Origin: Amoebophrya sp. A120
Taxonomy: Eukaryota > Protista > Dinoflagellata
Assembly (NCBI GenBank): GCA_905178155.1
Contig: CAJINV010000002.1
Coordinates: 634,422 to 698,421, forward strand
DNA: 64,000 nt
Direction of reading: 5' to 3'
The notes under the pieces were generated by a model. That model was not told the origin of the DNA. It worked only from the letters and a program-made list of their open reading frames with translations, and did not search any database. Within the stretch, counting starts at the first letter, position 1. Each line of letters opens with the position of its first letter. Shown here piece after piece: positions 11,901-45,424 of the stretch. A program made the translations under genes and the position numbers.

Positions 11901-14900
11901 ACGTTATGCATTGCAAATATCGACGATCTCGGTCTGGAAGGGTGCAGAAGTTTGGCATGCAGGTTTTGGACGATGACCTCCCTGAAGATCTGGAAAAATA
12001 GCAAGGGGCTTAGCATCACAAGTTTATTTGCAAGGGCTTTTTGGAATGCCTATCCCTATCCCTATTCTGCATGAGAAATCGCGTCTCTTCAAGTTAGCCG
12101 AATAAATGTTGGGACAGCCTTTCATGCTACTCGTGCACGACAGATTTTCGTGCAACTGAAAGCGAGCATCACAAGTTTGCATCCTTCCAGACCGCCGGCA
12201 TATCAACTGTAAAAATGTCTGGGTCTGGAAGAATTCATGTTTGTCATGCTTGTCTGGCATGACTCTTAAATCTGTCATGCACGTTACTCAAGAACTCCGT
12301 TTTTCTGTGATGCAGAAGCGCAGTTTGTCATGCAGAATAGGCAACACCTAGGAGCTCAGAAACTTGTCATGCTGAGCCAGCATCTGTAGCCTCATCATGA
12401 GACGCCACCCAGCATCACAAGTTTCCAGACCCAGACATTTTTGCTTTTGATACGGCACATAATTTTTGCAAGGCATACGTCCTGATCATGACCATTGTCG
12501 GGATGCATTAGGTCTTTCATGTCATCTTTTGACAAGCCGTCTGTTGGGATATGCAATGCAAAAAGTATCGCACTTGTAGTAATTTTTATCGCTGTTATAT
12601 GCATTACAAATCTACTCCATCCAAAGATAAAACTAAAACAGCATAACAAATCCTATTTCTAATGCTGAGAAAATTTGTAATGCAATCCATACTAGTACGA
12701 TGCTTTTGCAATGCATATCCGAAAGCATCACGGAATTCTTGCTTCCCGAGGACGTTTATCCTGAGTAAAAACATCCCCACCCCAGAGTCAAAATGGGGAT
12801 CTCGCAACACAGCAGGTCGAGAAGTTTTGAGAGTCACGCATGACAAGTTCCTCTCTGTACTGTAGTGAAGTTCAGTAAGTGCAGCCGCATCAGAAAGCCA
12901 TCTACTCATCTTCCGGTTTACAGCATTACAAAGTCCAAAACGCGATTGGGAATGCTTCTCATGGGGATGCGCATTACAAATCTTCCTGTGATTGCAAAGC
13001 TGCATAACAGCTATGGTGTGGGGACGTTTTTACTCAGGATAACGTTTCCCAGACCCTCCTCAGCCTGGTGGTGTCCACCCGAGATTATCCTTTGTAAAAA
13101 CGTCCTCACCACGTCCCAAGATTTGTCATGCAAAATGGCATGCCTACAATGTTTGTCATGCGCAAGAACCTCGACATGAGGAGCATCCTCTGCAGATGCT
13201 ATGTGGCAAGAAGGTGGACTCGTCATGCTCTAATCCGGATGAGGTGATGAATTTGTGATGTCTCTTTACAATTACATGATAAACACGGTCGAGTACTTGA
13301 GTAGTTTTACACTGAAAGCACAAGGAGATTGTCATGCGCAAGAAGCCAAACTACCTTGTTGATTTGTGCAGCGAAAAAACAAAACATCTTGACTCTAGGG
13401 TGCAGCTGGGGACGCAGTTTTTACCCAGGATAGAGATGGCTTTGAACACATCCCGTGGTAGGCCGTTTTCTTGCCACTCTCTCTCTCCGATTCTGTATCC
13501 TGGGTAAAAACGTCCCCACCCCAGAGTTGTCATGCAGATTTGCCATCACAGGAACATTTGTGATGCGCAACCCCATCACAGGCATTTTCAATCGTGTTTG
13601 AGAACTTGTAATGCTGTAAACAGGATCAGCAGATCGATTTGTGATGCGGCTTTCCTTGCTAACTTGCACTACCTTACGCCGGACTGAAACTTGTCATGCG
13701 TGACTCCCAAAACTCCTAGGTTTGTGTTGCAAAATCCCCATCTTGACTCTGGTGTGGGGACGTTTTTAATCAGGATATTTTGCCGTCGCCATCTTCGTCC
13801 ATAGTGTTTAGGTCGCCCAAGGTGATTTTGTCGTCGCTTCCAAACTCTCGCGCCAGATATGCATTACAAATTTATTCCCGTACATGATGTTGTACAAAAT
13901 GCGTCACAAATTTCAACTTGTCATGCTGAAGAGGTTCTTTGAACGGAAAAGTTTGTCATGCGGAAGCCACATTTGTTCGACGTCGTGTAGTACGCGAAAT
14001 TTCTTGTGGATCATATCAGATGCCCAAGCGCAACCTCATCCCTGTTCAGACCAGGTTCGCCATCTAGATTCCCTTCTGCAATGTCTACACCAGTCATGAA
14101 CGCAGGCGAGCCGGCGTGTCCCTTTCGGAAGTCGGCCTGTTTGTTTTTTGTAGTTATAGCATTTTTGCATTATGCTGCATGCAAAGAAGTCTACAAGAAG
14201 AGATCTATCGTCCATGGTTCAGAAGTTGTGCACCAGCGGCCAACAAGTTGTCCTCCTCGTGGCGAAGATGCATCAATGAAGTAGCCCTAAGTATCTGCAC
14301 GTGCTCTACAGAGGTCGTAGGAGGTACTTTTTACTTTTGTATCAGGAGAACGAGATGTAATGTTGATGTCGAGATTGATGATGAAGATGATTCTGAAAAA
14401 GAATAAGTAAATACGATATCGTGAAAGTCGTCCGAGTCTCCGCCACCTGCTTTCCACTCGTCCAGGCTAAGCTTTCCGTTGCCATCAAGGGGAAAATATC
14501 GATCTGGGTCATCTGGAAGAGAGCAGACACTTCTGGTCGTGGGGTTTTTATTGCATCTCCAAGAGGCGGATCTTCGTCTTCCTCATGGGAAATGCCAATG
14601 CCTTGGTCGCCTGGGCACAAAAAAAAACACACATTTTTTACTAGTGGATTTTCTCAATAAAGGATTATTTGGCCTAAGTGATTCCTAAGTGTAGTCCCAC
14701 CGTGTTTAGCTTCAAAACCCGCTTGATATCTGGATTTTGTTCTGATTATTTTGGATTGCCCTACGTAGACCGGTGGCAATTTGATGCGTTCTGCGTATTT
14801 CCGTCGGTCCTCTTTCCAGCATTCCAACCAATTTAGACAAAGCCCAACACGAACGAATTTTACGGCAACGACTTGGTGCAAAATCTCGCCTACGAATCAG

Positions 14901-17900
14901 CGACATAGAGAGGTGAAGAACGAAAAAGGGCGACACGCGATCTGATTTTTTGCACGATGTTTGCACTAGAGACAGCTGCACTTTTATCCCGCCCAGCGAG
15001 GCGGCGAAGACGCGACGCACTGTCTGAGAGGATATCGACAGACCCCTCTTGATCAGCCCAAGCAAGAAGGGGCAACGAGTCAACATTTCTGATCCGACGA
15101 CGCAGACGCCACTGTGCACAACAGATCCGCAATTTATCTCATAAAACCGGTCCGAGATCTTCGCTGTTTTTTTGAGTTTTGTGCTATCTAGTTCTAGACG
15201 TGGATCTTGCGCGATTTGGGAAAGTCGCAAGCACGTCGCCGCGGAAGCTTTTGACTCGTGCCCTGCGTCATTATTTTTGGATTGGCGTCCTGCTGTTCAT
15301 AGCTCCATGTGGTCAGATTAAATGAGTCAGTTTTTTAGTGGGGGAATGTCGATCAGATCAATTTGCGCGGCCTTTCAGGCGGACGCTATCGCTTCGCAGA
15401 TGGAATAGGGGCCTCTGACTCTTGGGCAGCGATTTTCGTGATCGAGTGGAGGCATTGCCTCGGAATTCAGAAAATAAAGCATCTCGCTTGCAGATCTTTC
15501 TAGGTCAGTGCTTTCTCGCTGTCCATCGACACTTCTTGCTATCCATCGCAACATAATCTTTCGAGAAGATCTTAGATCTTGCTATGCGTCGAATATCTCT
15601 TTTCTTGTTTTTCCTAGATCCTCCTATCCATCGAGAACGACCCAAGCTGCCACGGGCAGCACTCGAGTCCTGAATGCCACGGCATCATCGAAACACCCCG
15701 GATCCAAGATCCAACGCCCCTTCAGAGACTGCGCCATACTCATTGAAAACCACTTTCTTAGCAGGCGAACCGGCAGGACGCCCTTCGTGAGCGGATTTTC
15801 ATTTTCTGAAAATTTATTTGGGTAGAGCCGAAGCCGAGTCTAGGAGCCGACTCATCGACCACGAGAAGGCTTACTTTCCAGTGTTAACGACCTAGCGAGG
15901 TCAGCGATCTACTTATTGCAGCGTCTTCACCTACCTCTTCAGACCCGCGGTCAAGTGCTTCCAGCATCGGCTGAATTCGCAGAGGTAGCTCGTGTAGAGA
16001 ATTTTGTCCCGTAGATCGTTGCCTGTCCAGTTTTCACCACGGCGAACGTCGAAAACTTTGCGGCAGTTTGGCGCTGCTTCGGGGTTTTTCGTCATCCGGG
16101 TCCGCATTCGCACGAAGAACTCCAGGGCGTTATCTGAAAAAAATTGCAGGTCGCACTTTTTCTTTGTTGCCGTCGTCGCGACGTTTGGGTAGTCCGGACG
16201 GAAGCAAAGATTGAGGGTGCGACGTGGGCCACCACCAAACACCAGCGTCGATTTCGATGCAACGCGCAGGCACCCCGGCAAACGCTCCGCTTCCGGGTCG
16301 CGGTCCAAGTCGTATGAACCCTGCATCCAGAGAATGAACTTGGAGGCCGTCCAGACACCGCAACAATCCACCGCCTCCTTGACCAGGTCGTTTTTTTCGA
16401 CTTTTTCGCCGTTTCGCCCGCGCTTCTTGAACCGCGCAGCCTTGTCGTCTAGCTGGCTCCACAGCTCTGTCTCCGCGGCTGCGACATACTTCTCCGATTC
16501 CTTACTCCGCCAATACTGGTCTTTCTTCCAGTAGCGGCCCGCGTTTTCCGGCACCCGCATCAATGCCTTCGCTGCAGTTTCAAACTGCGACGCCGAGATG
16601 TGCCCGGTTCCTGGGAACCACTCCTCGAGGTCGGAGATAAAATTCACGCTCATCTCCCAGCAGCACACCAAAGTGGTCCTGACCCGATCCTGCCAAGCGG
16701 TTCGAGAACTCTTCACCGTGCGATTAATGAGCTGCAGCCGCCGGACCGCCACAGAGTCTGAATTTTCCGCCCTGCCTTTCGTTGCGCACCAACTGTCAAC
16801 CGCCTCACCTGTAATTGTCACTTCATCACGAATGACGTCGCCATCCAACCGCGGGTCATCACTCGTTTCCCAACACCCGAGCTTGCGGTAGACCGGGACG
16901 ATGATCGTCTCGCCAGCAGGCGGAGAAAGCGTGGCGGCTTCTGGGTCTTTTTCTAGGCGAAGCAAAAAGTTGCACCACCTCTCCTCGACGAAGAAAAATA
17001 GAGGCCAGAAGTGGTCCGCCTCTGGTGCGAATAAAACATCGCGGGGTGTGCCTGTGCCGGCCATGACGGAAGTCGGCTAAGGCAGAGGTCACTCATAGCA
17101 CTAGCTCACGCCAAGGCAGAAGTCAGGTAGCGTGACAGCCTCGAAAGTAGCCTCTTGGGAGAGCAACGATGGATGGAAACGAGCGGCGGAGTCATATTGT
17201 TCACTATCAATACCAATTTTTTGAACTACGAACCTGCCTTCAACACTGCAGCGCATGGATGTTGCGCGTTTCCAGCCGCCACCCCACTAGTAGCCGCGCG
17301 TTTACTGTAGCACGAGCCAAAAAGTCACGCGGTGGTGTAGTGTTTTGCCGGTTAGTTCGTATCTGTCTCGTGCAGTATCTCTATCTTGTTCTTTCTTTGG
17401 ATCTCGTGGCATCATTGCAAGGTGACGAAGAGAAAAGAACGAAAACTAACGCACGAGAAAACACAAAGGCCAGAACCAGCGCACTCTCTGGCCAGGATTC
17501 ACTGCGATCCAGAAAGAGGTGGCCAGAAGGAGCAACCTTTTGTTACGAACACGCAGCCCGTCGGTCGGTGGTAAGGTTACTTACAAAGGCTTTTCTAGAA
17601 AGAAGGCGCCAGGGCTGCCTCCGGCGTTTTGTTTTCATCGTAAACTTTTCCGTCATGTGTATGCTTGTGTCTATGCCCCGGTGAGTTGATTCGTTCATAT
17701 CATGTGGACCCATTTATTTCTCGTTTTTTCTTTTTTGCTTTTGTTCTTACGCAGGACTTGTTTTTTTTTTGCCCTGCTATCTTTCCTCATAAATTTTTTA
17801 TATCTTCAACATAGGAATAAATATAAATATATCATTTACTGATGCTTTACTTCTTCCCCCGAGGCCTCGGGTTCTGCTTCGGGTTTTTCAGACAGGACGA

Positions 17901-20900
17901 CTGCTGCCTGCGAGAGTGCGACGTCGATCCCTAGGTCTGTACGATCGACCTCATCAATTAATTTTAGGCTTTTATCACTTCTACGACCTTCTTTTTCAAA
18001 TTCAATTGATTCTCCTGCTATTCATCGTATTAAAATAGTTTGGAAGTAGCGTTTGCACCTCAATCCAGCTTGACAACTACACGCCCCGCGTCACATTTCC
18101 AAACTCCGTCCGCCGACAACGCGAGGCGCCACGGCGCGGCGCCCACCGGCGCGAGGGAGGGGACGGGGAAAACAGAAACGGGCGCCCGCTGGCGCAGTCC
18201 CAGCGAGCGTGGGGGCGCCCTCCCTTTAGCAGGTTCGGGCGCGTGAGTTTCTGCCGGGAGGGACAGACAGGGCCGTGACTGGGTTCTGGGCTGCTAGACC
18301 CGGAGATGGGCGGCCCGAGCGGCAAAGCGCGCGCGAGGGGTGCGCACAGTCTTCGCAGGGCCGGATAAACCTCGTCCTCAAGGCGACCGCGACAGTGGCG
18401 CATTTCCAAGCGGTACGCCATCAGACGCCCCGCCCGACAGCTGCCCCAGCCATCTGCGAGTTCCGGTATGCTGGCGCTGCCGCCCTGGCGCTGTTGTTGC
18501 TGCATTGGCTTTTCGCAGCCAGGGTTCGCACGCCGCAGCTACCCTGCTGCGCGCACCTTTTGCAGCCAAAACAGGGTCTAATGCTGAAAACGTCAGCTCG
18601 GAAGGCTCGCGAGCTATCGAAACGGCAAACCGCTCGCGTTTTCCAGCTTTCCACGCAGAACGAGGGCCCTGCCAGTGCTTGGAGCGCAAGAAGTTTCAGG
18701 AGCGCAACACAACTTCCGCACGAGTAGAGAAAATTATATTTTTGAATTACAACGAAAAAGATCACCAGGAGCAAACCTCCTCCTCCTCCTAGTAACCACG
18801 CAAGAAATATTAATATTTTTCACTTTCTATTTTTTCTTTCATAAGTTGTAGACGAGCAGTCTATGGCTCCGGGGAGATGAAAACTCACGCTTAACTAACC
18901 TATGCCTTCAGTGTCCGCGATCCAGATAGAATTATTTTCTACTTCAATATATACTTGCAATTTTTTTTTTACTGTTCCTGTCGACGCCATCGCAAAGCTT
19001 TGCGCTTTTTTTAATTTTTCCTATCGTGCCAGCAATCTATTTTTTATTTATTATTTCTTCATCTACAAAGTCATGCTGTCGCCAAAGTTTGCTCTAGTTT
19101 CCAGTCTTCTCATGTCTGTATCGTAAATCTATCCGCTCGCAAATCAAGACTGAAATACTCGCTTTCGATCAAGATGGCGAGTATGCTGCATGGAGATGGA
19201 ATAGATACATCGCATGGTCGATCCATGAAGAACAACTCGATCCATGGTTATAGACTCGATCAATGGAGAGGAACTCAGTGGTCGCGCGGAAAAATAGAAG
19301 TAAGCGCTGAAAGAAGTCAGCTACTTTTTCCTACTTACAGAGACGATAGTAAATTGATGAGAAGTTATTCATAAACTAATCATATTATCGACGATTGCAT
19401 CTAGTTTATGATCAAATCATTATCAAATAACTTCAATGCTCATGATCATCGCGCTTTACTTCCTCTTTCCGGCGTGCTTCATCTTCATCTTCGTTGCACC
19501 TCCTTGATCTTGTTCCCCCTGCCCTTCATCGGCAGCTGGGTCCTCCTCCACCTTGACCTTGAGCGGATTCTTGTTCTTGGTGTTTTCTTTCCGCACCGGC
19601 GACTTATTTTTGTTTTTCTTCCCGGACGCGGACCCTGCAGCGGTTGGCTCCTCCGGGGCCTGCGCGACCGGAATCTGCTCCTCCTGCTGCTCCACCGCGA
19701 TATTCTTGCTGCTCTTGCGGTTCGGTTTCTTCAGCGGGGTCATCAGCTGAGCGTTGGCGGTGACGCTTTGTTTGTTCACCCGCTTGTTGTTCCGCTTGTT
19801 GTTCCCGTCCGCACCAGCAGCCTGGAACTGGATGTTGTCCTCCATCACAATGTCCTCCTGCATTACCAGGTTGGCCGGGTCGCGGGCATCTTTCGCATCG
19901 ACGTTTTTGCTATTCTTGCTCCTCATCGCTTTCATTTTCGGAAACTTCGGCTCCGCCGGCAGTCCGGCCCCTTCGGAAACATCCAACTCGTACCCAGCCA
20001 GGCCGTAGGCGCTGAGCTCCTGGTCGGTGTTGGTGGTGGTAGTGGTGGTAGTGGTTGTGGGGACGCCGAAGCTGCGGATGAGCAGCCTGGCCTCCGCCGC
20101 CCTCGACGGAGAGATGATGCCCATCCGCTGCACTAATTCGTCGATGTCGTCCTCCGGCTTCCGGACTGGACTGGATTGCTTCTTTTTGTTTTTGGTCGTG
20201 GCGCTCGGGGTCTGGTCGTCCAAAATCGGGTTGTCATCGATGTCCGGCCCCTCCGAGCCGAGGAAATTCAGCTCCGCGGGTTCTGCGCTTCCCTTCTTCT
20301 TTCGGCGACCCCGCAGGGCGAGGAGCTGTTTCCCCACAGCGGTGGTGTTGTCGAACTCCTGCCAGTATGAACTGCAAAAGTAGCGCACTAGTATAAATTG
20401 CATTACAAATCGGCTCAGCATTACAAATTAAATGTGTAATGCTGATTTCTCTTAAGACCTAGATTTGGAATGCATAGCCGCAATTAGTACGAGTGCGATA
20501 CTTTTGCACAGGATACCCAGTGCGGGAATTCTGGGATTATGTCGGAGAAATCCCGCTCCGTCGCGGTGATTTTCACCCTGATTTCCTCCGCTTTTTTGTA
20601 GTTACCTGTTTAGATTCACAAATTAATTGAAAACTTGCAGCCCATGTAGGAGAACTCACACTGAGACTCAAAAGTTGAAAACTTGAGTTTAGATTCAAAA
20701 ATCTAAAGTTGAAAACCCTACAAGTTCAAGCACAAGCACCGAGTTCAAGCGCAAGCGCCTACAAGTACCTACAAGCTCAAGTACCTACAAGCTCAAGCAC
20801 CAGTGCGAGCGCATTACAATTCCCAAGTGCAAGTGCGTACAACTTCCAGCACAAATGAAACCCTACAAGGGTACAAGATCAAGTACCTTGTTCCCCCAGC

Positions 20901-23900: not shown

Positions 23901-26900
23901 TGTTGGATGGAGTCGAGATTCCGCTCGACCCATTTTCTTCGTGCGTCGGAAGCGAGGGTTTGCAGGTGTTCCTGGTTGCGCTGTAGTTCCTCCTGCTGTT
24001 TCTGCTGCAGCTGCTCCAGGTGCTGCTCCCGGTACACTGCCGCCTTGTTTCCCTGTGCGCGTCCGTTCGTGATATCCAACAAACCCCGGCAGAGAATCTC
24101 CAAAGGCTTATCAACGCCCCGCGCTTGCAAAACCTTTTATTTTTGCGTTTTTTTTTTGAGTTACGAGATAACAAACAGTGCGCGACTACGAAAGAACAGG
24201 TTCGTCACAAAGCATATCAAGCGCACTACTTCACTGTGAGAAAAACTAGGACTACGGCACTACAAACACTCCACTACTGAAACTAACGTCTACCAAACTT
24301 TCAAAAAACAGAATCTCCATCGTCATCACTACTGTACATCGCAAAACGCCGCCCAGAACGCCGGCTCGCCGTCGAGGACGATCACTGTTCTGTTTGTAGG
24401 GTCCTTTTTGTCCTTTTCCTCCTGCATTTTTGCGATCTTCTTGTTTGCCAACGACACCAACTGTTGTTTCTGGTCGATCAGTATGAAATGCAAAAGTGTC
24501 TGGGTCTGGAAGGATGCAACTTGTCATGCTAAATCTGAAGCATGCAAAAATCTGTGTTGCATGAGTGCCAAAAGCTGTTCGCTTTCAATCTCATGCAGGA
24601 CAGGCATGAGAGAGACCTCACAAACTCTGTCATGCTAGGTTCCGCATTCCAGATCCAAGGGTCATGGAAAACCTGCTGCATGACGAGTTTACACTCTTCC
24701 AGAGCCAGACACTTTTGCACTTCATAGTCAGCAAGTCCAAGACCTGCGGGCTGTTGCTGCACAAAGCAGACTTGACGCCGTCCAGGTCGAAGACCGGGTG
24801 CGATAAGCCCAACCCTTTCCACCTGAAGAAAGGAAATCAACGCGACAGTCATGCTGAAATGCGACAAGCCTAAACCGTCAATGTTGAAGAAAGGAAAAGC
24901 ATAGTCATCATGAAAATCAAAATTATAAGTGCTCGCGATCATGAAAACGCCATAGCTGGCATGAGAAGCCTATCATGACAATACCAGTGTAAAAAAAAAT
25001 TACCAAGTCATAAACGTCTCCACAGTGCAATTGACGGCAACCCGTGCCATTAGGGTCCACATCACCTTGTGGACACCGTGGCGCAGGTCCCGACCGTTGT
25101 GCGGCGCGGCGTTGTAGACATTCTTTTTGAGTCGCAGGGCGAGTTGCTGGAAATTTGTTTTGTCCTTGGACTTTCTGTATGCAGCGCAAACAGAAATGAC
25201 TGGGCCTGGAAGGGTGCAGCCTGTGCCGTTGCATTTGATCACACAGCAAATTAAGCAGTCTGTCATGCGAAAGTAAGTTTGTCCTGCGGAAGTAGGTCTG
25301 TCATGCGAAAATATGTCTGCCATGCGAAAATAAGTCCGGCATCAGCATGCCCACAGAGAAAAAGTCTGTCATGCGAAAGTATAAAAACGGCAGTCATGCG
25401 GGAGCGACATCGTAGAGGACGCGAGTGCCGTGGCTCATGCATAACATGCATCACAAATCCCCACTCTTCCAGGCCTAGACTCATTTTTTTATCTGTCATA
25501 CGGTAATGCTGAAGCACAGCGGGCTCGCCCAAGCGTTCACCTTTGCGTGCGCGGCCCTCGGGGCGGCGTTAACATTCAGCATGAACTGCTTTAACAATCC
25601 GTCGACCCGGTCCGGTTCCTCTTCGTATTCATCCTCATCGCCCAGCTCCGCATTTGAATCGAAGTCGAGGTCGAACGGGTCCCTCATCGCCTTCTTCTTT
25701 TTAGCGTCTTTTTTGGCTTTGGCGGATTGTTCGCAACCTGAGTTTTGGTTTTATTTTGCTAGTCGATTTCTTTGCCACTCAGGGCCATGCGTTTACTCTT
25801 ATGGCGCAGACTGAGTCTAATACTGTGGCATCTTCTATCTACCTAGCTATGTACTAACCATGCAAAAGCTTCGCGACGAGGCTATCAATATAGGAATAGC
25901 TCATCTTATAAACGACAAAGAACTTGCAGCTGCGGCAGCTATGGGCTGCCGTTTTTGTGTGAAAGAGGATAAAAATACGCTGCTGCGCTTCGGTCAACCA
26001 CTGCTGGAACGCCACCGTACCACGTAATTTCCCCACTTGCTTCGCCGTGGGCTTTTCCTGCCGGAAGTGCGTCCTGCACTCGTTCTGCAATCCGAGCGGA
26101 ATCTCTTCCCATTGAAGGTTCAAACTTGACAAATCCTTCTTGGTCAGCCCGACGCCCTTTGCTGCTTTCTGCAGCTCAGCGAGCGCAAACTCGGGAGTAA
26201 ATTTCCACGCCATGGCTATGCTTTTACTTTGTTGTTGTTCAGAATTAAAAGTTTTTTCGAAACAAACGGGTTTTTGAAAATAGATTTTTGGCGCTACGAA
26301 AGCACCCCGTACTTGGCTCGGGTTACCTAAGCAACCTGCTTGTGTTTGGTAATCGAGGACGAAGGTTTTTCTGGGTAGTGGCAGTGGTAGTAGCAACAGT
26401 AGTAACACTAGTAGAAAGAAGTAGCACTAGCAAGCTTGCTAGCTTCTGCAATGAAGGACTTGCTTCCACAAAGAAAAAAAGAGTGACAATCTTATACATA
26501 TCCAGGAAAAAAAGGACGAGCTCGCGCCCACCATGGACGAGAAAAAACGGAAAAAAAGAACCGATGGGAGCACGGAAGTGGTGCTTGCGCTCCTGGGTGC
26601 ACTCGTGTGTCACTCTATATTTCTCAGCTTGCTACTCACAAAAACACGCGGACGGAAATCAATGAAGCGCGCCCACAAGAAGGCAATCGAGCCGCTAGTA
26701 GAGGCTAGGACTTAGAAACGAGGTCGAGCCGCCGCTTCAGTTATTAGGCGCAGCGCAGGCGGACCGCACCTACACAAACAAAAACAGGCTTATGGACCCA
26801 CCAGGAGAAACAACCTAATGTTGTAGGCCAGTGAACATAGATATCTATGCTAAGGCCGCGGGCCTTCTCCAGCCTCCAGTGGCCCGGCCAATTTGTTCCT

Positions 26901-29900: not shown

Positions 29901-32900
29901 CTCTGCGGTCCCGAACTTTTGCGTTACGTCGCCACGCTTGAGAGCTACGTCCAGAAGGAGAGACACGCGGCAGGCGTACAGCCTCGCCAGCTTCCACGCG
30001 GTGTCGGAAGTCTCCCGCTTCAGCTGGTAGTTGAATGTCCGCACGCCGAGCTGAGACCGAAGGCCGAGGATCTTGCGGATCGACTGTCCGTACTGTGGCA
30101 AAGCGCACAAGACCGGAAGGTACTTGCGGTAGACCGGCTCCAACGGCTCCACCTTGACGCTCCTCTCGCTGCTTATTGTTATGGAGAAGCCCCGGTCGGT
30201 TGCGCCATGCCGAACTGTTAATCTCTCTGAACGGAGACGACGCTTCCGCTCTGCCGTCGAAAGCAAGTGCAGGTATTGGCCCCGGGCTTCCGGGATTCCG
30301 CGCACGGCGTCCTTTTCTTCACCACTCGACTCCTGCTCACTCGCGGAGCCTTCCTTCTCACTCGCGGAGCCTGGACCTGGGCCTGCGCTGCTGGAGGTGG
30401 CGGACGACGTGGCTGCGGACGACGACGTGGAGACCTCGCGCTCGGCCGCAAGCTTCCGCGCAGGCGGAGCCGCGTTTTCTGGCCTTTTCGATTTAACTTT
30501 GCGAGCCGCAAGACCGGCTACCTTTGGCTTTTCGGGTAGAACAGAATCCCAGGCCATCAGCGGGTTCCGACGGTTAGAACCGCCCAGACTCTTCCCGCTA
30601 TCTTCGTCGCTGCTGCCAAAGTCGATGTCTGCTTTCTGCACCAGCTCGACTTCGCCGCTTCTGGGAATTTGCACAGTAAAACTCTCTTCCACTGCTGCAA
30701 CGCCACCGCCTTCAAGCCGCACGGAATGAAGGCGGATTTTCTTCTGGTCGAAGAACCGCAGGCGGTTTCTGTACTCGGGTGAGCAGAAAAACGCGTCCGC
30801 CGCAAGTGTCTCCGGCAGTCGCACTTCTTTGAGGTCCTTCTCCGCGTCGTAAATCGGGCTCACCATCACGCCGCCGAAGGCGTACGGTGAGCGCGAAATG
30901 TAGTACACTAGGCAGTACGCCGGAAAGCAGGCAGCGTCTTTGAAGATTTTGTTTGCGGGGACGAACACAAGATCGGCGCTCTGCTGCTGCTGTTGGCCGC
31001 CGCCCGGTGCTGTGTCTTCCCCGCCGTTTCCCTTGGGCCGCACCCCGACGGAGAACTCGATCAAAATGGCATTTTCGGGTCGGGAGGAAAAAAACTCGTC
31101 AACCAACGGCATCTGATTCTGAAACAGCTCACCAACCTCCACTGCCTCGCGCCGCCGCTCCTGCACTTCGTATATCCAGGCCGCAAGCTTTCCCCAATTC
31201 TCTTTACATGACCGGGAGGTTTGGACCCAGGCGCATAAGCGCTCGACCCCGGACGGTGGAAAGCGGTACAACTCCGTCGCGACTATGCCGCGGGCTTCTT
31301 CCAGGCCCGGGATTTTTTCGCCATACAACCGCGCCCGCAGATCATCGCGCTGCTCGCTCTTTTTGTACTGCAGCTCCGGGTTCTTGTCGCTCCTGTGTGC
31401 CTTCTTGCGTTTATTCTGTCCCGTCCCCACGTTGGCGTAGAAGTGGAGCTTCGTCAGCTCTTTCAGTTTGCTGTAGTACCGCAGCTGGCATGATGCGCGG
31501 TCATCTCTCTCTATTTCAGCCCGCACACGCTTCTGTCTCTCCGCCCAGTAATCTGCCTCCGCTTTTTCCTGCGCCTTCACCTGCTGAACCCGCAGCTGCT
31601 CGACCTGCTGCTGCAGATTGACGCGATCCTTATCCATCTCCTCTTTAAACTATGAAGTGCAAAAGTATCGCACTCGTGCAAATGCATTACAAATTTGAAT
31701 TTCCTCAGCATGAAAAATAAAATAAAAATTTGTAATGCGCATTTGCCTTAAGAAAAACATTTGTAATGCATGATTGCAATACGAGCACGATACTTTTGCA
31801 CAGGATATAAACTTCTGGCCAACAATGCCCGTTTTCCCTTTTTTGTACAAGTTCGAAACACTGACGACGCGCTTCTTCTTTGCAAGCTCTGCAGCAGTGT
31901 ATCCGCCCGGAAGGACCGGCGACTTCGATGTGGAATCGGATCGCTCTGACTCGGACTGCGATAACAACTCCGACCCAGATGAGAGATCCGGATCGAAATC
32001 GCCGTCAGAGGGCTCGCTTCCGTATTTCTTGTAGTCCTTCGCATTCAAGCGCCCCCGCAAGGCGTCCTGCCGGATGAGAATGGAAGAAATCCGCAGTATG
32101 CCACGGTAGGCAGACTGGAACTCCTGCTGCAGCAATTTCCCCCGTCCTAGCTTTTGTTCTGCGGTCGCCTGCGTTCTCGGGCACTGGCACATCCCAGCCA
32201 GTACCATGTCAACGAATTTTACTCGCCGGCTGTGATCCGAGATCCGAAGCAACTGCTTCCTCCAGATGGTCAAACACACAGAGCCGCACGAATTCTCTGG
32301 GAACTCGGGAGCGTGGAAGAGGAATTTGCGAAGATAGGTGGAGCGCTGAGATTCCTGGCCCGCTTCCGGTGAACCGTTATCCAAAGCCGCGGCGGTGTTG
32401 TATTCGAGACAAAACTTCTGGAACGGGCAGCGATCAACGCTTGCGATGATCATGTGGAACATGACCGCCTCCGCAACGAGGGCGTGCTGCGCCTTCGCGA
32501 GTAGGTCCTTCTTCTTTTCCATCGTCAGGAGAGCTTCGCGCAGCGTCACAAACTGCATCTCCTCCAGAATCTGCGTCTCCTCTTGCAGGACCTGAAACGC
32601 TTTCCGAAAGCGTTTCTCGGCTGTCCGCTGAAGCTCCACGTTGGTCTCGTAAGTGTGCCGCTTCTTCAGAAACGAGAAGCTCGAAAAATCGTCCAGCGGG
32701 TTGGCAAGGTACCCGAGCAGAAGATGCGCGACTCTGTAGCAGGCATGCTGCAGCCCTTTGTTGTTTTTCACCAACTTCCACTCCTCGACCGAAAGGTAAT
32801 GTGGAGCATTGTCGCCCGCGGAAAAGATCATTTCTGTGTACCCGAGTGCGTCAATCACGGCCAGACGGCGGCAGGCGCGACCAAAAGTCAGCCACCTTTG

Positions 32901-35900
32901 GTGGGTGGGCTGCTTCAGCAGTCTGTACAAGGCTACCCAGGCCTTGACAACGTTTGTTTTCTGTTCCTTGCTCTGCACCGATATTTTCAGCGGGACACCG
33001 TCTCCACCCGGGTCCAGCTCCACGTATGCGTCCTCCATTGCTTTCGCAAGATCCCGCTCACGCATGTGCTCCAGGAACCGGCTCCAAGACCCGATGGCGT
33101 GTTGGTTCTTTAGCCTGTGCGCCGCCTCCTGTCCGGGCAGGCCGTTATAACCCGGCCGAATCTGCACAACCTTGTCGGCCTGCTTCTCTACGATCTCGCG
33201 AACGGTGGCAGAGCTCATGTTCATCTGCCTCGCCTGCAGATACGTCTTTTTCTCAATGAGCGGCATGTCCAGCTTCGTCGTATCCAGTGCAAAAGCGTCT
33301 GGGTCTGGAAACGTGGAACTTGTAATGCTGGTCTTGTAATGCTGGCTTGCAGTTGCTCCCCGGCATAACCAACAAAAGCTGCAACTGTTCTTGTCATGCA
33401 GAAAAGCAATCTCTCACGCTGGCTGCCTGTGAGAAAACGTTTTAGAAAGTTTTCACGCTTGGCTGCATTCACAGCTGTTTCCGTCACCCACGTTTTAGCA
33501 TCACAAGTTTCTTTTCCAGACCCCGAACTAGATATCTGCAATGCATACGTTGTAGTTCCGAGTAACTGCGAGGCGTGCTTGCCGATGTTCGCCGTGCTGT
33601 GCTCGTCGCAAGGTACAAAAATCGGCAACCACACCAAGGCTGGGCACTCCCGCTCCATACGATGCTCGACGATGAGGATGGAGCACATTACAGTTGCGCT
33701 TTCGGCGCCATCGCCGGAAAAGATTGCGGCAAAGGGGTCGGAAATACCATTGAACTCTAGTCCGTACGACATCACGGTGTTTGCGAGGCGGACGGCATCG
33801 CGCTCGTGCGGCAAAAGGTCCGGGTGGTGGCTCAAGCGATGCGGGGGCTTGTAGTGGATGTGTATCGGAAGGTTCGGAACCCGTGGCCATTTATTTGGCT
33901 CTTCCCCGTCGACAGCAAACCAGCAGCTGCCGTGGCAGACCGTCCACATTGCGCTCGGGTTGAGCGTCCGCTTCTTCGTCCTGGTGCCCCTCGACGTTCC
34001 GTCAACGCAAAACCGCGTCATCACTGCGCACTTCCCTGCAATTTTGTATGCTTCGCGCAAAGCTTTGGGACTTGCTGTGACCGCGAAGTCACTCAAAAGC
34101 ATCGCAGTCTTCAGGTACCCATCCGTTCGGGGGTTGCTGCGGTAGTTGAAATACTTCTCGACATACCTGCGGATCTTTTTCTGCTTTTTCTTCCGCCGGC
34201 GCTGCTTCGACATCCTGCAAAACCTCCCCATCTTGTTTCGTTTTGTTTTCCGTTTACGCGGCGCTATCTCACAGAAATTTGCTAGCTTATATGAATCTGC
34301 TTGCTGACTCCCGCAGGACAAAGACGGCTGCTGCTGCTCCCCATGCATGACTGAAGTGCGAAGTCCAAATCGTCCCGGGTCTGCATTACAAGCTGCAGAT
34401 AATTCCTATTGTTTTGGAGCACGCAGGTGATGACCCATGCCCTATTCTTCACTTCGTTATACTTATATTAAGACTGGGTCTACAACGAGCAAGAGTTCGT
34501 TGCTGAGAAGCTAGCGTTTTTCTGTCAGATACGTGAACCGCCGTCGCCGGAGCCGTCTCCATCGGACGAGGGCGCTGAACTCAAAGATCGCGATGATTCT
34601 GCTCGCGATGCGGACCCGGAACTGCTGCTCCGACTGCTCTCCGAATCCGTAGAAGAAGACGACCGAGAAGTTTCTGACGACGCCGCCGAAGACGTTGCAG
34701 CCCCGAGCGCCCTGTTTTTGCGGCGCCTTCGCCGCTTGTTCTCTTGTTTTCGTTTCTCCTCCGCCCGCGCTGCAAGAGGTGTGGCCTCTCGTGCCCGCAT
34801 TTTTCTTCGCATCACCGGCTTCGCTTTTCCACCCGCCTTGGCGCGCGGCCGCGGTTTCCCAATTGGCGCCGGAGGCTCACTATCAAATGCGAAAATGTCT
34901 GGGTCTGGAAGACTCTGAGATTTGTCATGCATGTTTTGTATGACAACCCAGGATGGACGTCTGTAATGCACAACCGCGCATCACAGATTTTGAGAGGACT
35001 TCCTGATGCCTACTCCGCATGAAAGAAGAACGCCCTCCCCGCGTAGCACGAACTACTAGACTCCATTTGCTGGCCATGCAATACAGATAGAGTCCAAAGT
35101 TAGCATCACAAGTTCCGATCTTCCAGACCCCGACATTTTTGCATTTGATACTCACCGCCTGCTGACGATTCCACCGAGGACGATTCCTGGTGCGCTACCA
35201 CCGCACGACGAGCAGCGGCAGCGATGTTTGCGAGCGGCTGAGCAGGGTGGCGGTTTGCGCATCCTCTGGAAAAACATCGATCTCCCTGCTTCCGGATTCA
35301 GGCACTGCCTGAGACTTCTGCTTGGCATCACAAGTCGTAGATCCAGACCACATGCATCCATGGAGACACCCCGGACTCGATACAAAAGGAACGAACAGGA
35401 AGCTACAGCTAATATACAAATAGAACAAAACTAATAGTGAACTTTGTCGACAGAAGATCCTACTACGAGTCGAGTGTGTCTCCTCTCACTGCAGCGAAGG
35501 AAGTCAAGGAGAGCTCCACCCCAATGAGCGGAGGGTACTGCTGCAGCCATGCCGATCATTCTACGGGCTATTTGCAAACTCCGACGCTCGCGAGCCTTCC
35601 GAGCGTCCGGAACGACGATACCGTCGCGCTTGGGCAGGTGGTGGCGCCGTCTCTAGCAGATCCGCGAACAAGAAGTGAGCTCCAGCGGGCAGAAACCCGT
35701 GTCGTACAGCCAGAAGGTCGAAAAGCGCAGACGCAACAAGACGAAACGCGGCGACCGCGCCTGCCTATAAGCGCGAGGGCATCTTATTTTCTGGCTCCTG
35801 GTGCAGAAATCGACTCGCATACTGTGACGCTTTTCATTGGCGTCTTGGAGGACGAAGAAACAGAAGTTAGCAACTATAGCGACCCTCTCACGCGAGGACG

Positions 35901-38900
35901 AGCGTACTTCTCTGGAAAAAAAACATCGGCTCTGGGCAAAAAAAAAACGCTCTGAGAAAAAACTACTCCTCTCTTGCGAAGAGGAAAAAAAAAGACACGA
36001 TAGCAGCGAAAACAAAAATCAAAGAAGGGAGGTGGAACCCTGGACCGGGAAAACGCACAGACAAGAAAACACCGGCGAAGCAACGCAGTCCCTGGGTCTA
36101 CCTAGTAAAAAAAACGTCGCTCTTGCCGAAGGGCTGCGCTAGGTAGCGAACCAACACGAGGCTAGCGCCCCTCCAATGACATACGAAAACAAAGTAGCGG
36201 ACCCCTCCAATCACATACGAAAACTGGCGGATCCATGCGTGACGCAAGGACCACTTTTACTTTACTTTAGGACATACAGACATTAGCTCCTGGCTCTGTA
36301 ACTCACGGACAGAAACAGGCACAGGAAAGCGATAGTAATCGCCTCGCTTCAATTTGTTGCGGCGCGACACGGGCGGCCTCAGATGAAATAAGGTTTTCAA
36401 CTTACACTTAGTATACAGCGGAGTTCTTTCGAGTGGTGCCCGGTGCATCTCTTTTCCTTCGGTAGTGCCGCCCTTTCTTTTTCAGAATTTTTTTGCGATC
36501 GAGGGCAGAAGCAGAGCTTTTTATTACTAAGCTTTTCCATTGGTAGGCTTGCTGCGATGGATTCGCTTTCAGTTAGTTTTGTTTTCGTGAAATCAAATTC
36601 AATCATTGGTAAACTCATTGGTATCAATCTTAAACCGATATGAAAACTCGTGCTAAGCGACACAGATATTTTTTGCTGTGTCTATTGTGGGCGAGCACGA
36701 CTATCAACCCACCTATTCCTATTTTGTAAACTTCGAGTCGCGATTTTTCTGCTATTCTAACATACTTCGACCACCAATAAACTATAGGCATGGCGTCACC
36801 TTATTAATTTTGTTCATCACCCAGATGGAGTTGCTTGCTTTTCGTAATTTACATACTTTTTTTTTCACATATAGCGCCACTCTTCTCATGATCCACTGCG
36901 CCGCTTCTTGCCGCTCTGTTCCGCCGCCCCCGCCACTTCTTGCTCCGCTTGTTGTGGCCGCTTCGGCGACCCGGTGCTGGAAGACGCGCGCCGGTACAAC
37001 AAGTCGACGATACCTGTGGAAGCAGGGGAGTCGTCCATTGCTTAGCACCGACCACATCCTGGAGCTCAGGAGCAGCGCCATGCAGCTTATTCATAGACTA
37101 CTAAAATAAATTTGCTTTTCTAAGTAATGTCTCTTTCTACATGATGAATAGGCCAAAAACAACCAAGGTAGTTTTAGCACCTTCCACCGCCCGCTCAAAG
37201 AGGAGCACTCCCTCGTCCGATATCGCGAGCGCATGCGCCTCCAACTCCACGAGGAAGGGGCGCAGGATGGGGGCGGACATCTCCACTACGTCGGCCAGGT
37301 CTGCCTCCGGGAGATGCGGTGTGCGAAACCGCCGCTGGATCATGTTGATCAGATCCGCCAGCACGACATCGTCCGCCACGGTCGGAACCTGTTTGGTAGT
37401 TTTTTTTCCGAAGATAGAAGGGCAGCGCGTACGCTGCTTTCATGTCTAGTAAGTAACTTACTATGAAACGCAAGCAATAAATGTGGAGCTCTGACATGCA
37501 AGTTAGTAGCTCTTTCATGTGGAGTTCTGAAACATAAGGAATAAAGCCTTTTCATGCTGTTTCTGTCATACGAGTGCAAATGCAGAAAGATACCCCGCCC
37601 GGGTAGGAGCGCGCTGCGAGCCCGGGTAGGAGCGCGGGTAGGAGCGTTGCGATCCCGGGTAGGAGCGCGTCAAGTGCGCCGCCGACCTGGGAAGAGTGTG
37701 AGAGTGAGTCAATTTATTATGGCTCAGTTTGACCACAACAATGTAAAAAGTAAGCGAAAAACACATGCAAAAGTTTATTGCTTGATGCAAAAAAAAGCGA
37801 CGCAAATCAATATAAATATTAAAAAACGAAGTGAGTCACAACTTTTGTCGAAAGTGCAAAGTTAGTAGCATGCTGCTAATGTCCCGACCAAGCAACGCGT
37901 CGTGGATCAATGACCTATGCCGAACGAAAAGAAAGAAGCAGGGAACAGATAGGTGAAATTAATATACTTCATACCATCAATCCGCCCTCCTCCTGCAAAT
38001 TACGCACTTCCACCGCAGAGCCTGCCGACGCCGAGTCCTCGTCGCGTACCTCGGGAAACGGCGGCGCGATGTACGCGAGGCCGATCGGATCGCCCAATCC
38101 GGCATCAGAGGGTGTATCTTCTCCAGGGGCGGGACAATCCGCGCTCAACGAACGCGGACGCGTGCTCGTGGCTTGCAGCTGCACGATGACGCACTTGTTC
38201 AGGGTGCACGCGTTTAGGTTCACGCTCATTTTATGTTGTTTTTTTTTAGAAAAGGAAGATGGATGGATCTAGCTGCTAGAGGTAGAGCCAATTTATATTC
38301 AGAAAACGAAGATCTAGCGGCGAGAGGTTGAGAAAAGGAGCATCTATTTGCGAGAGTAGCTACCAAATAAATTTATTATTATTGCGCGGCCCTGCATAAG
38401 CGAAAGTAACAGCGATGCTATTCTAAACGAAAACGCAGCATCAGGCCGGCCATTGCCAGAGCGTGCCCAGGATGCTGCTGCTATTAACAAATAAATTTGC
38501 ATAAGCGGTCGGGCTGAATCAAAAAAAGAACCGACGCATGCGCTAATCAATGCCGGGTTGAAAAAACAAAAAGTGGCCAAGCACTTGGACTGCATTGGAT
38601 TTCTAGCATAACATGGGGCTTGGCGTGCCGGAACTTTGGGAGTGCAGCCGGTTTTTTTCATGAATTAAAAAAGCTCGACCACGCTTACTGTACTAGTAGA
38701 GGCGGCCATCAAGAGTCAATGCTTGCACTCCGCCCGCGATACCTGACACGGACGTTCCCGGGCCTAACATACAAAACATCCATGCCTGGCGGTGCAAAAA
38801 AAGCGGGCTGACATACAACCAGTCCAGACGATGAAAAAAAACGGCGCTGGCAACGACGGCGAAAGACGATAGAAAAAACGCGGTCGTAGACGATGAAAAA

Positions 38901-41900
38901 AGTACACTTTGTGACGCTGTTGCAGATATGACGCCTATCACTTTTATTATGGTCCAAGAAACAACGCACAAGCTCTCTATCCACCAAAAAAATTCTCACT
39001 TCTACGGTCCAAGAAACAACGCACAGGATCTGTATCCACAAAACCAAAGGCACGACGGAGAACATCGAATTTCTTTGTAATGCGGGGGGACAGATGGATT
39101 CGTGAGCTGAGAAGGATGGACTCATTTGCTTCTTTCTGTTTTCTGCTGCTGAGCTCGAGAGCGAGAAGTGAGCTAGTTAGTTTGTCGCACGTAGTGCGCT
39201 GTGGATCGCATTCAGGCTGTTCATTTTCATTTTTCTTGTCACTCGCTCGAGCTTGGTTTTTCAGATCAAGAACTGCAGCGGGTGATCAGCGAGCTTGTTT
39301 TTTCAGATCAAGGCTGCGCCTAATATCAAGGACACAAGTCACAGCTGCTGCCGCTGATGCTAAGCTGCGCCATCGGATTCATTTGACACAATGACGGCGA
39401 GGGTGTGGGTTTGTTTCTGTGGTTAGCCCAAAGTAAGACACGTTTCTTTGCACGCTTCTCAGCCTCAGCCACCAAGTCAATCAATAAAGCGCGGCGCGCT
39501 ACTAGCAAAAATTGCAGAAATAAACTGTAGCTGGTGTTTGCGCGTCGCATATCACTCTGAATCAAGCGGGCGCGCAATTGCTTTCGCCTTCTGTTTGTCA
39601 AGCATCGCTGTGAAGATTTCGGTGCCGAGAATGAATGCCGCGGCTGTTCGACTTTGCGACGGACCCGAACGGCAAACCTCGTGGTTGTAATAAGTTTATG
39701 AATCAACTTGCGACGCAAAGAAATTCATTCCCATTCTCATAGTTTCTCATGCATGATGATAATTCAACGGGCTTCAATAAAGCGCGCTATCTCAAAACAT
39801 AATCTCGGTACCGCTCTTAGCTCGATTCGTGTTGTCGTGGATGCGTTTTCGAACTCGAAATCTTCAGCACCGCATAGGCTTGGTGAATCGCTTCCATGCT
39901 TCGTCCGGCCTCGGAGTTCGGTCGTTGGTTTTCCGTCCGGTTGCCGATTGTGCTGCGAAACTGCAAACGGTTTTCTGGAAATCTCGAAGCCATCTACTTC
40001 GAATCGATTCCAAATGAATCTGTTTGACTGTCGAGGAATTCCATAGTATGCGGATTTTTCCACGCCATTGCGCCCATTCCACGCCGACAACATATTCCGA
40101 CGCTGTTGCCCGCTAAAACGTACCTGCACCGCGCCCATACGCCCCGATTTGTTTTATTTCCGCGGAATTTTTGTTTCCGCTGGAGCCCTCTTCCGATTCA
40201 CAATTCCGCGGCTCTGCGTCAGCCGCGAATCCACAAAAACACTTAGGTTTCACTTAGGTTTTACTTAGGATTCACTTAGGCCAACACTTAGGTTTATCGA
40301 GAAAAACCATTACTAACATTTTTTAAAGCCGACCCTGACTATGCAAGAGCAGCAAGACAAATTATTTTCTGTTCCACAATGAGCATCAGAAGTTGTTTGC
40401 ATTCTTCCAGATAATTACCCAGATTGACGATATTTGCATTTGATAGTCGCCATCAGTGTCGTACATGCCAGCCAGGTCGTTCGAGCTGAGCGTATATCAA
40501 ATGCAAAAATGTCTGGGTCTGGAAACTTGTGATGCTGCGTCGCGAATAGGGAGTGCTCTGTAATGCACAGCCAAGCATGAGAAATATCTGCGCTTCTTTG
40601 TGTTGCGTTTTTCGCATGACAAACTGCGTTTTTGCATGACAGGCAAAAGGGTTTCTTCTTGGACACGCATCACAAACTTTTTGGTCATCCCAGACAAGCA
40701 TGACAAATCTCGCAGTCTTCCAGACCCAGACATTTTTGCATTTGATAGCGTATCGTGATGGCCGACTTGCCCCATCAAGTGCGCTTTGGGTTATGGATTG
40801 CAAAAGTACTATCGGGGTAGTACTATTAATTGCAATACAAATTGGGTCAGCATTACAAATCCAATTTGTAATGCGGATTAACCTTCTCGTTCTCCTTCAC
40901 AACTGAATTTCGTACTTAAATGCATAGCTGCAATGAGTGCGAGTACGACCCTTTTGCAATTCATACGAATGAGGCCGCGACAAATTCGTCCGGACTAAAC
41001 TTGTCATTCCTTCTATGGGAGTGCACAACTCGTCCCCCTCATTTGTGCCGGGGCAGGAGAAGCAATACAAGCATCGGCCTCGACGAGGAGATGAATGCAG
41101 GTTTTGCATGACAAATTCACATCGAAGACTGTAGTGCTGTTTTTGGTCGTCCCGAAAGAACTTGCCATGCGAATCGTGCAAACTGATAGATACTACTACT
41201 ACATGGACCACTGGGCAGTTTGCATGACAAACGAGGGGAAGTAGGGGGAGTTGTTGTCCACTCTCATACGATCCATCCAGCATGTTGATGGGACCGTGGC
41301 GTTCAAAGTCGGTCTCCGTCAGCTCATGATCCGGTCCCGCCATGAGGTGGAAGACATCGGGATCCCCTCCCTTTTCTACCCATTCTTTCTCCGAGACGTG
41401 GCCCGGCGCGCCATATCAAAATGAAACATCCCCCCGCCCAATATAATCAAAATGGAAATCTACGATCATGCGGGATGTGTGTACACAAATCGAATTTGCC
41501 TTGCGGTAGAGGACTGCACGCAGATCCCGAGCCTACTAGGCCGGGGGATTCACTTCGCGTAGGCGTCTAGCATGGCAGACGTCTCCTGCCCTGTAGGCCG
41601 CGGCCTTACAACATGATTACAAACCGCCCGCATAACGCGGCGGGCTCTCTGAATTTGCCGTCTTGCAAGACAGACAGGATTCATCGTGGTCGTTACAAAT
41701 CTGCATCGAAACTTTTATTCTTTGGAAGGATGCGCTTTTATAATAAATATGGAAATGGGGGGATTTTTCCTCACAATACGCCGTCGTCGTTCGCCATGTC
41801 CGACAGGTCGCCCCACGAGAACCGGCCGGCCGGGGCGTGGTTGTCTGCTAGGTTATGGATGAAGTTTGTGTCCGCCTCTTTCTGGTGCTCCACCAGTGCT

Positions 41901-44159: not shown

Positions 44160-45424
44160 CTTGATTTAGGAGGAGAGACGATGGACCAAGTTCACGAGTT
44201 GAGATGACATCTCAATGAATGTATCATTTTTATCGGCACTGCATAATGGTCTTTGACATTCAGATTCAGCACAAGTGCGAAAGATGAAAAAGATTTGTTT
44301 TTGTTATACTGGTAAGAAGTACAACTTCGGCACCATCTTCACGCTATTGACGCATGCTACACTTCTTTCCCGCGCCACCGACGTCGTAACTCGCACGCAG
44401 AAGTTGTGCCCCGATTTGCAGCAGGCCGCTTGTTGTAATGATACCGTGGAGCTGCTCTCTACTCGTTTGATGGACACGTCGCCACTTTTTGCGTCCCACG
44501 CTCAACGAAAAGTACCAATTGCAGGAGCCCGCTCCTCGCTCATCAAAACCAATTGTAATTCCTATTGCACCACCGGAGCTCTACCTCACAATGAAATGCT
44601 TTCTCAAGTAGAACAGGAGAGCCAAAGCTTCTCTCACCCTTTGCCGTGTGATGGCGACCGCATGGAAATGGAAATGGAAATGGAAAGGGGTCCTGAAGAA
44701 ACGCGTCGCTCGTTGTTTTCCCCGGAGGTGGCTAATAGTTCGACACGATTCAGTTTGTTCGCCAGCCTGGTGGCTGGGTACAAAATTTCTCTTCCCCGTT
44801 ATACGGTAATCGTCGTGGTACCCATACTACAGCCCTGCAATGGATTAATAATTTTATCTACTGAAGATTTTATTTAAGATGGGTTAATACACTGCTGAAG
44901 AAACGTGGTCGCTGGCATCTATACAATCGATTTACTTGCAAGTTCGAGTTGTTATTCTTTGTCTTAGAATACATCAAAATTTCCCAAAGGATAAGGAGGT
45001 ATCCTAGGCAACACAAAATCGAGTTTCTTATGCCTCTCCACTACGATAAATGATAAAGGGCTACTTACTGTGCCTGTCCAAAAATGATTCAACTTTTTCG
45101 CGTCTCTGCTACTTAAAAGGAAAGAAATCAGATCAAAACAACAGTGCTGTATTTTCAAAAAAACTGTAGAAATAGCCCTAATAAAATTGTAATTTGGTCG
45201 TGCTAGAAATGCTTGTGAAGAAACAATTGAAACAATAACACCCGTTGAAATTAACCCAATTAAGTGTAGCGCCAGTAAGCGCTTGAGCTTGACTGCACTC
45301 AAGTGCGCGGCTCCTATCAAGGCATGTGTAGTTGTGCCCGCAAGTATTGGTACTTTTGAAAAAGTTTTACTGGAAAGATACATGTTGGCTTTTTTGACGT
45401 CCCTCCCACACCTCCTTTTTTTTC

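Follow-up and report, generated by a model that had tools for sequence, protein, structure and literature searches.

A probable 25.7-kb DNA transposon with a hAT-like transposase gene inside an introner of an Amoebophrya host gene

We analysed a 64,000-nt stretch of the Amoebophrya sp. A120 genome (contig CAJINV010000002.1, positions 634,422 to 698,421; hereafter the window, in whose coordinates all positions are given) and found in it what is probably a single-copy DNA transposon of 25,677 bp. The element carries an intact gene for a hAT-like DDE transposase and probably entered, in one cut-and-paste step, an introner that was already old and belongs to a host EF-hand gene; it would be tolerated there because the host apparently splices the whole 26 kb out. 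Judged from its sequence, the element is a real giant DDE transposon with hAT-like workings. An earlier sequence-only reading of the window had proposed a giant, cargo-carrying hAT-like transposon at this place; beyond that reading, we found 16 copies of the motif CCTAAGT at the middle of the element, and the element is located inside a host intron.

Ends of the element and its transposase gene

The 8-mer ACATTTTT is present on the forward strand at 14631–14638 and again at 40316–40323, an exact duplication that encloses 14639–40315 (25,677 bp), and we read the two copies as the left and right target-site duplications (TSDs). The enclosed sequence ends in terminal inverted repeats (TIRs), which are identical at 19 of 23 positions without gaps and at 41 of 53 with one 1-nt gap (26 of 52 if ungapped). 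The left TIR with its 23-bp core occupies 14639–14690 (plus strand) and includes two copies of CCTAAGT, and the right TIR occupies 40241–40315 (minus strand) and includes five, the copies of the two ends lying on opposite strands; the imperfect inverted repeats of about 52 bp with shared CCTAAGT motifs that had been proposed are thus present. Identical 8-mers form 69,592 pairs across the window, of which 10 have inner ends complementary at 17 or more of 23 positions; nine of these are located within introner copies, as judged by coordinates and sequence, and the remaining one is the element. In shuffled sequence (n = 20), the best end complementarity was 16 of 23. The motif CCTAAGT occurs 25 times in the window against 4.35 expected, a count reached by none of 100 shuffles, and 24 of the 25 copies are inside the element. 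Two single copies, at 14286 in a host intron just outside the element and at 28988 on the edge of the A-tract block described below, may be there by chance.

The interior differs from its surroundings. By one mechanical rule, the element holds 5 introners and the rest of the window 42 (0.19 versus 1.10 per kb; P = 8e-6), and when two further introners recognised by eye inside the element are counted, it holds seven of 49 (P = 8e-5), in line with the introner-poor interior first noted. All seven leave the reading frames intact when removed. The GC content is 52.0% in the element and 47.0% in the flanks. The long open reading frames (ORFs) are co-oriented as had been described, every gene of the element lying on the minus strand, which is also the strand of the host gene. 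An Rfam scan gave 0 matches.

The transposase gene extends from 34231 to 29358 on the minus strand. Removal of two introners (33281–33547 and 31651–31807, with one repeat copy each) fuses three ORFs into 1,479 codons, and in the fused frame the D..D..CxxH..RW..E series anticipated by the sequence-only reading comes together as D77 (34003), D174 (33712), C208xxH211 (33610), R355-W356 (32894) and E601 (32159). Upstream, at 34525–35297 (minus strand), is a Lys/Arg/Ser-rich open frame of 165 aa without introner 34881–35150; its composition and a phase-compatible GT-AG intron suggest that it may serve the transposase gene as a 5' exon.

With a 488-aa middle piece of the transposase as query, a full HMMER scan gave 12 matches at E ≤ 0.001, namely 9 gene models of Amoebophrya sp. 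AT5.2 and 3 short Logan proteins; two of these Logan proteins fall into clusters with additional AT5.2 models. The AT5.2 homologues total 11 gene models at about 10 loci, and BLASTP of ten of them against the transposase gave 24–29% identity over up to about 1,200 residues. These homologues and the introners fit a syndinian dinoflagellate of the Amoebophrya type. Across the 11 aligned AT5.2 proteins, the catalytic residues are invariant wherever a protein covers the site, the remaining proteins being gapped there: D77 in 7 of 7 (a match of P0007 was dropped as an alignment artefact), D174 in 8 of 8, C208 and H211 in 7 of 7, W356 in 9 of 9 and E601 in 9 of 9. An R stands before the W in each of the proteins that have it. 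About 700 residues on the C-terminal side of the catalytic core are conserved among the homologues as well, and this extension is a candidate for the part that binds the CCTAAGT repeats. Two adjacent AT5.2 gene models, g15498 (P0011) and g15499 (P0007), are halves of one transposase, and g5848 (P0014) has a tail of about 440 aa with no counterpart in the other homologues, perhaps a fused neighbouring gene.

The order D, D, CxxH, W, E is that of Hermes and Kat1 (PMC4763223), and these hAT elements also share with the present one the 8-bp TSD, short imperfect TIRs, subterminal repeats of opposite polarity and a long helical insertion before the E (PMC10368747, PMC4763223). A TIR length of 5–27 bp is given for hAT elements in PMC12506042, and the terminal match of 19 of 23 falls within it. 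The W of Hermes in question is W319 (PMC4763223). Both transposase halves gave hAT-type Pfam sets (PF05699; DUF4371/FAM200) in the Atlas, the sole named clusters shown, at scores of 0.79–0.85. An RW pair in the insertion domain is typical of hAT transposases. The element differs from Hermes in scale, that element being about 3 kb long with a 612-aa transposase (PMC10368747) as against 25.7 kb and at least 1,479 aa here. Its own features compared with hAT are the lack of detectable sequence similarity and of a clear BED finger, the C-terminal extension, about three extra genes and the central motif array.

Searches of Pfam, PHROG and PDB with the transposase gave no match to any transposase family. 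Likewise, the 14 homologous proteins had no significant match in Pfam, and the homologue alignment found nothing in PDB at E ≤ 10. Word-indexed protein searches with both transposase halves found none, an alignment-based search returned only P0001 itself, and single-sequence structure models (predicted local distance difference test, pLDDT, 40 and 33) were too poor for use. A BED zinc finger was found neither by Pfam in the window pieces or the 14 homologues nor by eye, the true N-terminus being uncertain. Because a fold match is lacking, we do not file the transposase in hAT; it may, though we hold this for the less likely case, belong to another DDE superfamily of the CxxH type, whether P, Mutator, a KDZ/Zisupton-like one or one that is new. 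Such an assignment would account for the missing HMM and structure links to hAT, for a protein that exceeds Hermes (612 aa, PMC10368747) more than twofold in length and for the absence of a clear BED finger; CxxH also occurs in several superfamilies (PMC4763223), and Zisupton likewise gives 8-bp TSDs (PMC12730594). Against it stand the hAT-type Pfam sets for both halves, even though they score below 0.9, and the RW motif, short TIRs and subterminal repeats, which suit hAT. The window pieces and the homologues had no Pfam match to the KDZ transposase domain or to Mutator, the cysteine clusters of KDZ/Zisupton were not found, and the 8-bp TSD is all that the element has in common with that group. 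What stands of the giant hAT lineage first proposed is therefore a giant DDE transposon that carries genes and has both ends and catalytic motifs of hAT type, for which other family ends exist and whose motifs are conserved in homologues; strict hAT membership goes beyond this support, given the missing Pfam and PDB matches, the Atlas leads below 0.9 and the lack of a clear BED finger.

Wider scans added no relatives. A metagenome scan with the transposase gave 107 pattern matches, 0 of them confirmed, and the element-end pattern had 0 matches in viral and 0 in prokaryotic contigs, collections where a match was not expected. Eleven viral contigs (L001–L011) contain three phased CCTAAGT copies and encode no relative of the transposase (best E 0.3).

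Insertion into a host intron, and copies of the element

The element splits an old host introner. The left half (14484–14630), recognised by alignment to introners, is decayed, and the right half (40324–40446) is 73% identical to introner 11321–11590 (match at 11504–11592, E 3e-9). When the element and one TSD were deleted in silico, a 278-bp sequence remained that has introner ends and a 4/5 direct repeat, and it could be aligned along its whole length to introners nearby (best z 10; 15 tested, both orientations). We compared public contigs over 13900–20350 and 27001–42500. Here, X1 is a DNA run, and X5 is a run from another sample and study that we guess to be of RNA type. X5 contigs omit neighbouring host introns, and one of them leaves the window sequence at 14487 and continues in letters unique to 40456, thereby joining the host exon upstream of the element (40456–40494, minus strand) to the downstream exon (14414–14487, minus strand). 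The joint is in frame, and the downstream exon completes an EF-hand loop begun in the upstream one; the loop pattern, of PROSITE type, was found at two places among the 127,996 codons that the six frames of the window contain. The skipped part measures 25,968 nt, and 0 of its 8 possible cuts are GT-AG. It is likely, then, that the host splices the whole 26 kb out as a non-canonical intron. Since X5 holds the left junction with 0 differences, the X5 strain carries the element. X4 contigs contain the host exons and none lies on the transposase, although contigs cannot show absence. The host gene (13400–14487 and 40456–44160, minus strand) encodes, besides the EF-hand loop, acidic repeats and, by eye, a signal-peptide-like N-terminus, and it has many introners.

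Introners and non-canonical introns are described for Amoebophrya (PMC7789003, PMC12130899), and the host intron resembles them in its introner ends and non-GT-AG boundaries, with seven introners inside the element besides. It differs in length, as the non-canonical introns average 120–240 nt in the account of PMC7789003, against 25,968 nt here. Some introners have been attributed to diverse TIR elements (PMC12130899). The idea that this transposase moves the introners was rejected as unlikely, since the introners of the window differ from the element in having TAT..ATA ends and 5-bp repeats.

The ends belong to a dispersed family. At least eight other X1 contigs match the left end, and eight contigs have a substitution at 14761 in common. 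Among the matches listed, five of these other X1 contigs lie on 14639–14785 with 9–16 differences each. Other contigs begin at 14638–14642, that is, at the proposed boundary, and the likeness of the other family copies to the left end fades by about 14980 (some 300–340 bp inward). An X5 contig matches 14638–14907 at 85% identity and has a different flank. At the right end, X1 depth rises to 153 in the bin 39926–40442. Across the interior (14980–20350 and 27001–40286, repeats excepted), by comparison, X1 contigs show 0 differences and a depth of 41–44, equal to the flank depth. The diverged left-end contigs, the X5 copy and the right-end depth therefore make the ends a dispersed, diverged family with the proposed boundary, while the interior is single-copy at these thresholds. 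Within the element, 38616–38706 has raised X1 depth and a unitig break, and an X4 contig of depth 47 aligns to it with 6 differences, which indicates a small repeat common to other loci.

Several points weigh against this overall reading of the locus. No contig bridges the right junction among the matches listed, an output flooded by introner matches, and the unitig stops at 40286; X1 is possibly the source of the assembly and hence no independent support. In the 19 kb of interior compared, no second copy appeared; since no second 25.7-kb copy was seen, movement as one unit has to be deduced from the TSD and the insertion site. The TSD disagrees with the nTnnnnAn target preference given for Hermes in PMC10368747. 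The exon join comes from a single contig, seen as a loose end of 30 letters, and from a run that was assigned to RNA by a guess. To these is added the missing family match of the transposase. The 8 bases preceding the end of the X5 family copy also start with ACA and are near-palindromic; a target preference is possible (n = 2 sites).

Two other histories could have produced such a locus. An assembly artefact, or a chance pairing of two unrelated family ends, would fit the unbridged right junction and the T-rich TSD, but we regard it as very improbable: the left junction is bridged in contigs of both X1 and X5, a single introner is divided between the two flanks, which also hold consecutive exons of one gene, and the compared interior contigs have no differences and uniform depth. 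Alternatively, a smaller, transposase-only element may have inserted and then grown in place by insertions or gene capture, so that the 25.7 kb never moved whole. This history, which we consider improbable though well ahead of an artefact, would explain why the interior is single-copy, why likeness to other copies ends some 300–340 bp from the left end and why seven introners have gathered inside; moreover, the homologues gave no clear link of cargo to transposase elsewhere. On the other side, a search within the element found no nested TIR and TSD pair, and no long-terminal-repeat-like long direct repeat is among the 20 largest repeat families listed for the window. The interior is uniformly introner-poor and GC-richer than the flanks, the TSD is perfect while the repeat of the host introner itself is 4/5, and the array stands at the midpoint of the present length.

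We thus retain insertion of the whole element as the likely history. By analogy with Hermes and Kat1, the transposase would bind the CCTAAGT repeats at the ends, pair the 23-bp ends and cut, excising the donor element, which would then insert into the introner with an 8-bp stagger. The host gene would be kept, as splicing would use the introner ends whatever stands between them. The seven internal introners show that the lineage of the element has been resident in this genome for some time, and the perfect TSD and open frames suggest that this copy is fairly recent or still competent.

Cargo genes and the central motif array

Several cargo genes had been claimed, and about three were found. 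The largest, C1 (19456–26213, minus strand), has six GT-AG introns and four introners, all in frame, and is predicted to encode about 1,450–1,500 aa (1,501 codons in one frame, or about 1,450 if another in-frame intron is removed), with acidic and Q/K-rich low-complexity stretches. C2 (15931–17064, minus strand) is an ORF of 377 aa from its Met, with low-depth X5 contigs at 16838–17202, and C3 (36850–38229, minus strand) is a putative multi-exon gene whose exons were read by eye. C1, C2 and C3 had no Pfam match, and pieces of C1 and C2 had neither a PHROG match nor a relative in viral contigs. The products are most likely element-borne nuclear helpers or passengers. A proposed similarity between C1 and the tail of AT5.2 g5848 was rejected after controls: one region scored 63 against 36 ± 5 (reached in 0 of 1,000 shuffles), but 4 of 72 real-protein controls also reached 63, and a second region failed (734 of 1,000).

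The middle of the element carries an array of its end motifs. At 27408–27638, six copies of CCTAAGT in the orientation of the left end are followed by ten exact copies in that of the right end, with a period of 11 bp; the 16 exact copies at 27408–27624 make up 16 of the 25 in the window. The array forms a long palindrome (z −7.2) centred on 27483, only 6 bp from the element midpoint at 27477. It lies in a non-coding block of A- and T-tracts (26850–28990, 2.1 kb) that is predicted to be bent DNA with a phasing of about 10.5 bp. Tract spacings in the block peak at 10–11, 20–21, 30–32 and 41–43 bp, and Tandem Repeats Finder (TRF) gave periods of 10, 11, 21, 22 and 43. When all 500-bp windows of the 64 kb are ranked by periodicity, 9 of the top 10 fall within the block. 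The centre of the block, 27920, is 440 bp from the midpoint. Another X1 contig spans 27477 with a difference, a hint of a similar array elsewhere in the genome. Outside the element, a repeat of about 65 bp occurs three times about 1 kb apart (57990–58058, 58994–59054 and 59960–60026) in a gene-poor, introner-free stretch that also has a weaker phased A-tract patch (58251–59000).

Curved DNA is found at loop apices. The transposase that acts on the ends might also bind the 16-copy palindrome at the midpoint, and the palindrome and the phased block together could form a bend or loop apex that aligns the two arms of 12.8 kb and thereby brings the ends together. Phage Mu offers a parallel, as it requires a central site, an arm of which has DNA-bending repeats, for pairing ends 38 kb apart, and the mid position works best (PMC10052514). 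The strong gyrase site of Mu and the array are both central in a long transposon, are accompanied by DNA-bending repeats and concern ends that have to pair across tens of kb; the Mu site binds host gyrase and has a proven role (PMC10052514), whereas the centre of the present element is built from its own end motifs and would have such a role only by analogy. If the element is as we read it, the array and the A-tract block are a tentative candidate for a synapsis aid in pairing the ends. The midpoint match was seen post hoc, and without the seven introners the arms measure 11,849 and 12,121 bp, both of which count against this function.

At least as likely, and in our estimate an even chance, the array is no synapsis aid and serves as an operator or decoy through which the transposase regulates itself and C1, or is the relic of an internally deleted family member without its tips. 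In favour of this, the block is flanked by the transposase stop (29358) and the C1 start (26213), a place for promoter and terminator signals; the array contains a TIR-inner motif and passes from left-type to right-type orientation, as a miniature element does. The element has its middle in an intergenic gap of 3 kb, so that the midpoint coincidence is less rare than it seems, a few percent by estimate, and the A-tract block is centred 440 bp away from it. Conversely, neither a 23-bp TIR nor an 8-bp duplication was found around the array (a nested miniature inverted-repeat transposable element with its own TIR and TSD was rejected for the same reason), the 16 exact copies in strict 11-bp phase suggest upkeep and not decay, and the palindrome centre is just 6 bp from the midpoint. 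The synapsis aid thus stays the tentative candidate stated above. A yet bolder proposal, of which we are doubtful, combines the parts: a giant hAT-like transposon family would exist in Amoebophrya, and this member would escape the length limit through a midpoint hub that folds it in half, hidden in an introner and removed as a 26-kb intron. Such a hub, if true, would be a eukaryotic counterpart of the central gyrase site of Mu.

Comparison with other large elements and neighbouring features

The efficiency of cut-and-paste drops with cargo above about 6 kb (PMC6431247), for which reason natural cut-and-paste elements are thought to be limited to a few kb. An element of 25.7 kb whose transposase is intact, and which holds a candidate cis-device for pairing distant ends, bears on the length limit and on large-cargo vectors. 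Among enlarged TIR elements, the Chondrus En/Spm elements (16–20 kb, 4–5 ORFs; PMC6431247) likewise carry full-length genes and are shorter than the present one, and the fungal TET/JBP-carrying hAT7 and KDZ elements (PMC12730594) likewise hold extra full-length genes. These belong to other superfamilies or have 7-bp TSDs, as described in PMC6431247 and PMC12730594, while the cargo here has no known domain. With Polinton/Maverick and Teratorn (PMC6431247), the element shares the size class (15–40 kb and up), TIRs and the presence of several genes; Pfam and PHROG scans of the long ORFs found none of the Polinton/Maverick genes (PolB, integrase, ATPase, capsid) or other viral genes.

Among the best-ranked full-text matches, there was no paper on a giant hAT-like element of Amoebophrya or on an array of end motifs at the centre of a eukaryotic transposon; Repbase, Roy et al. 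2023 and further supplements of PMC12130899 could hold the family. Of the published accounts of Amoebophrya genomes, PMC7789003 gives two putative transposases for one of its strains and none for the other, and PMC12005148 gives no DNA transposons for a third genome. Against this record of almost no DNA transposases, AT5.2 has a divergent DDE family, at about 10 loci, that escapes Pfam. If the 26-kb intron is precisely removed, a non-canonical splicing signal would lie in its ends, independent of a short hairpin, and the host intron is a ready test case for the splicing of non-canonical introns.

Elsewhere in the window, exons at 45420–48000 (minus strand) are cut by many introners and, judged by eye from known motifs, resemble a kinesin motor domain. 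Introners 50248–50553 and 56186–56500 are 87–93% identical in inverted orientation and form a young pair, and at least five introner families have TAT..ATA ends and 5-bp repeats in common.

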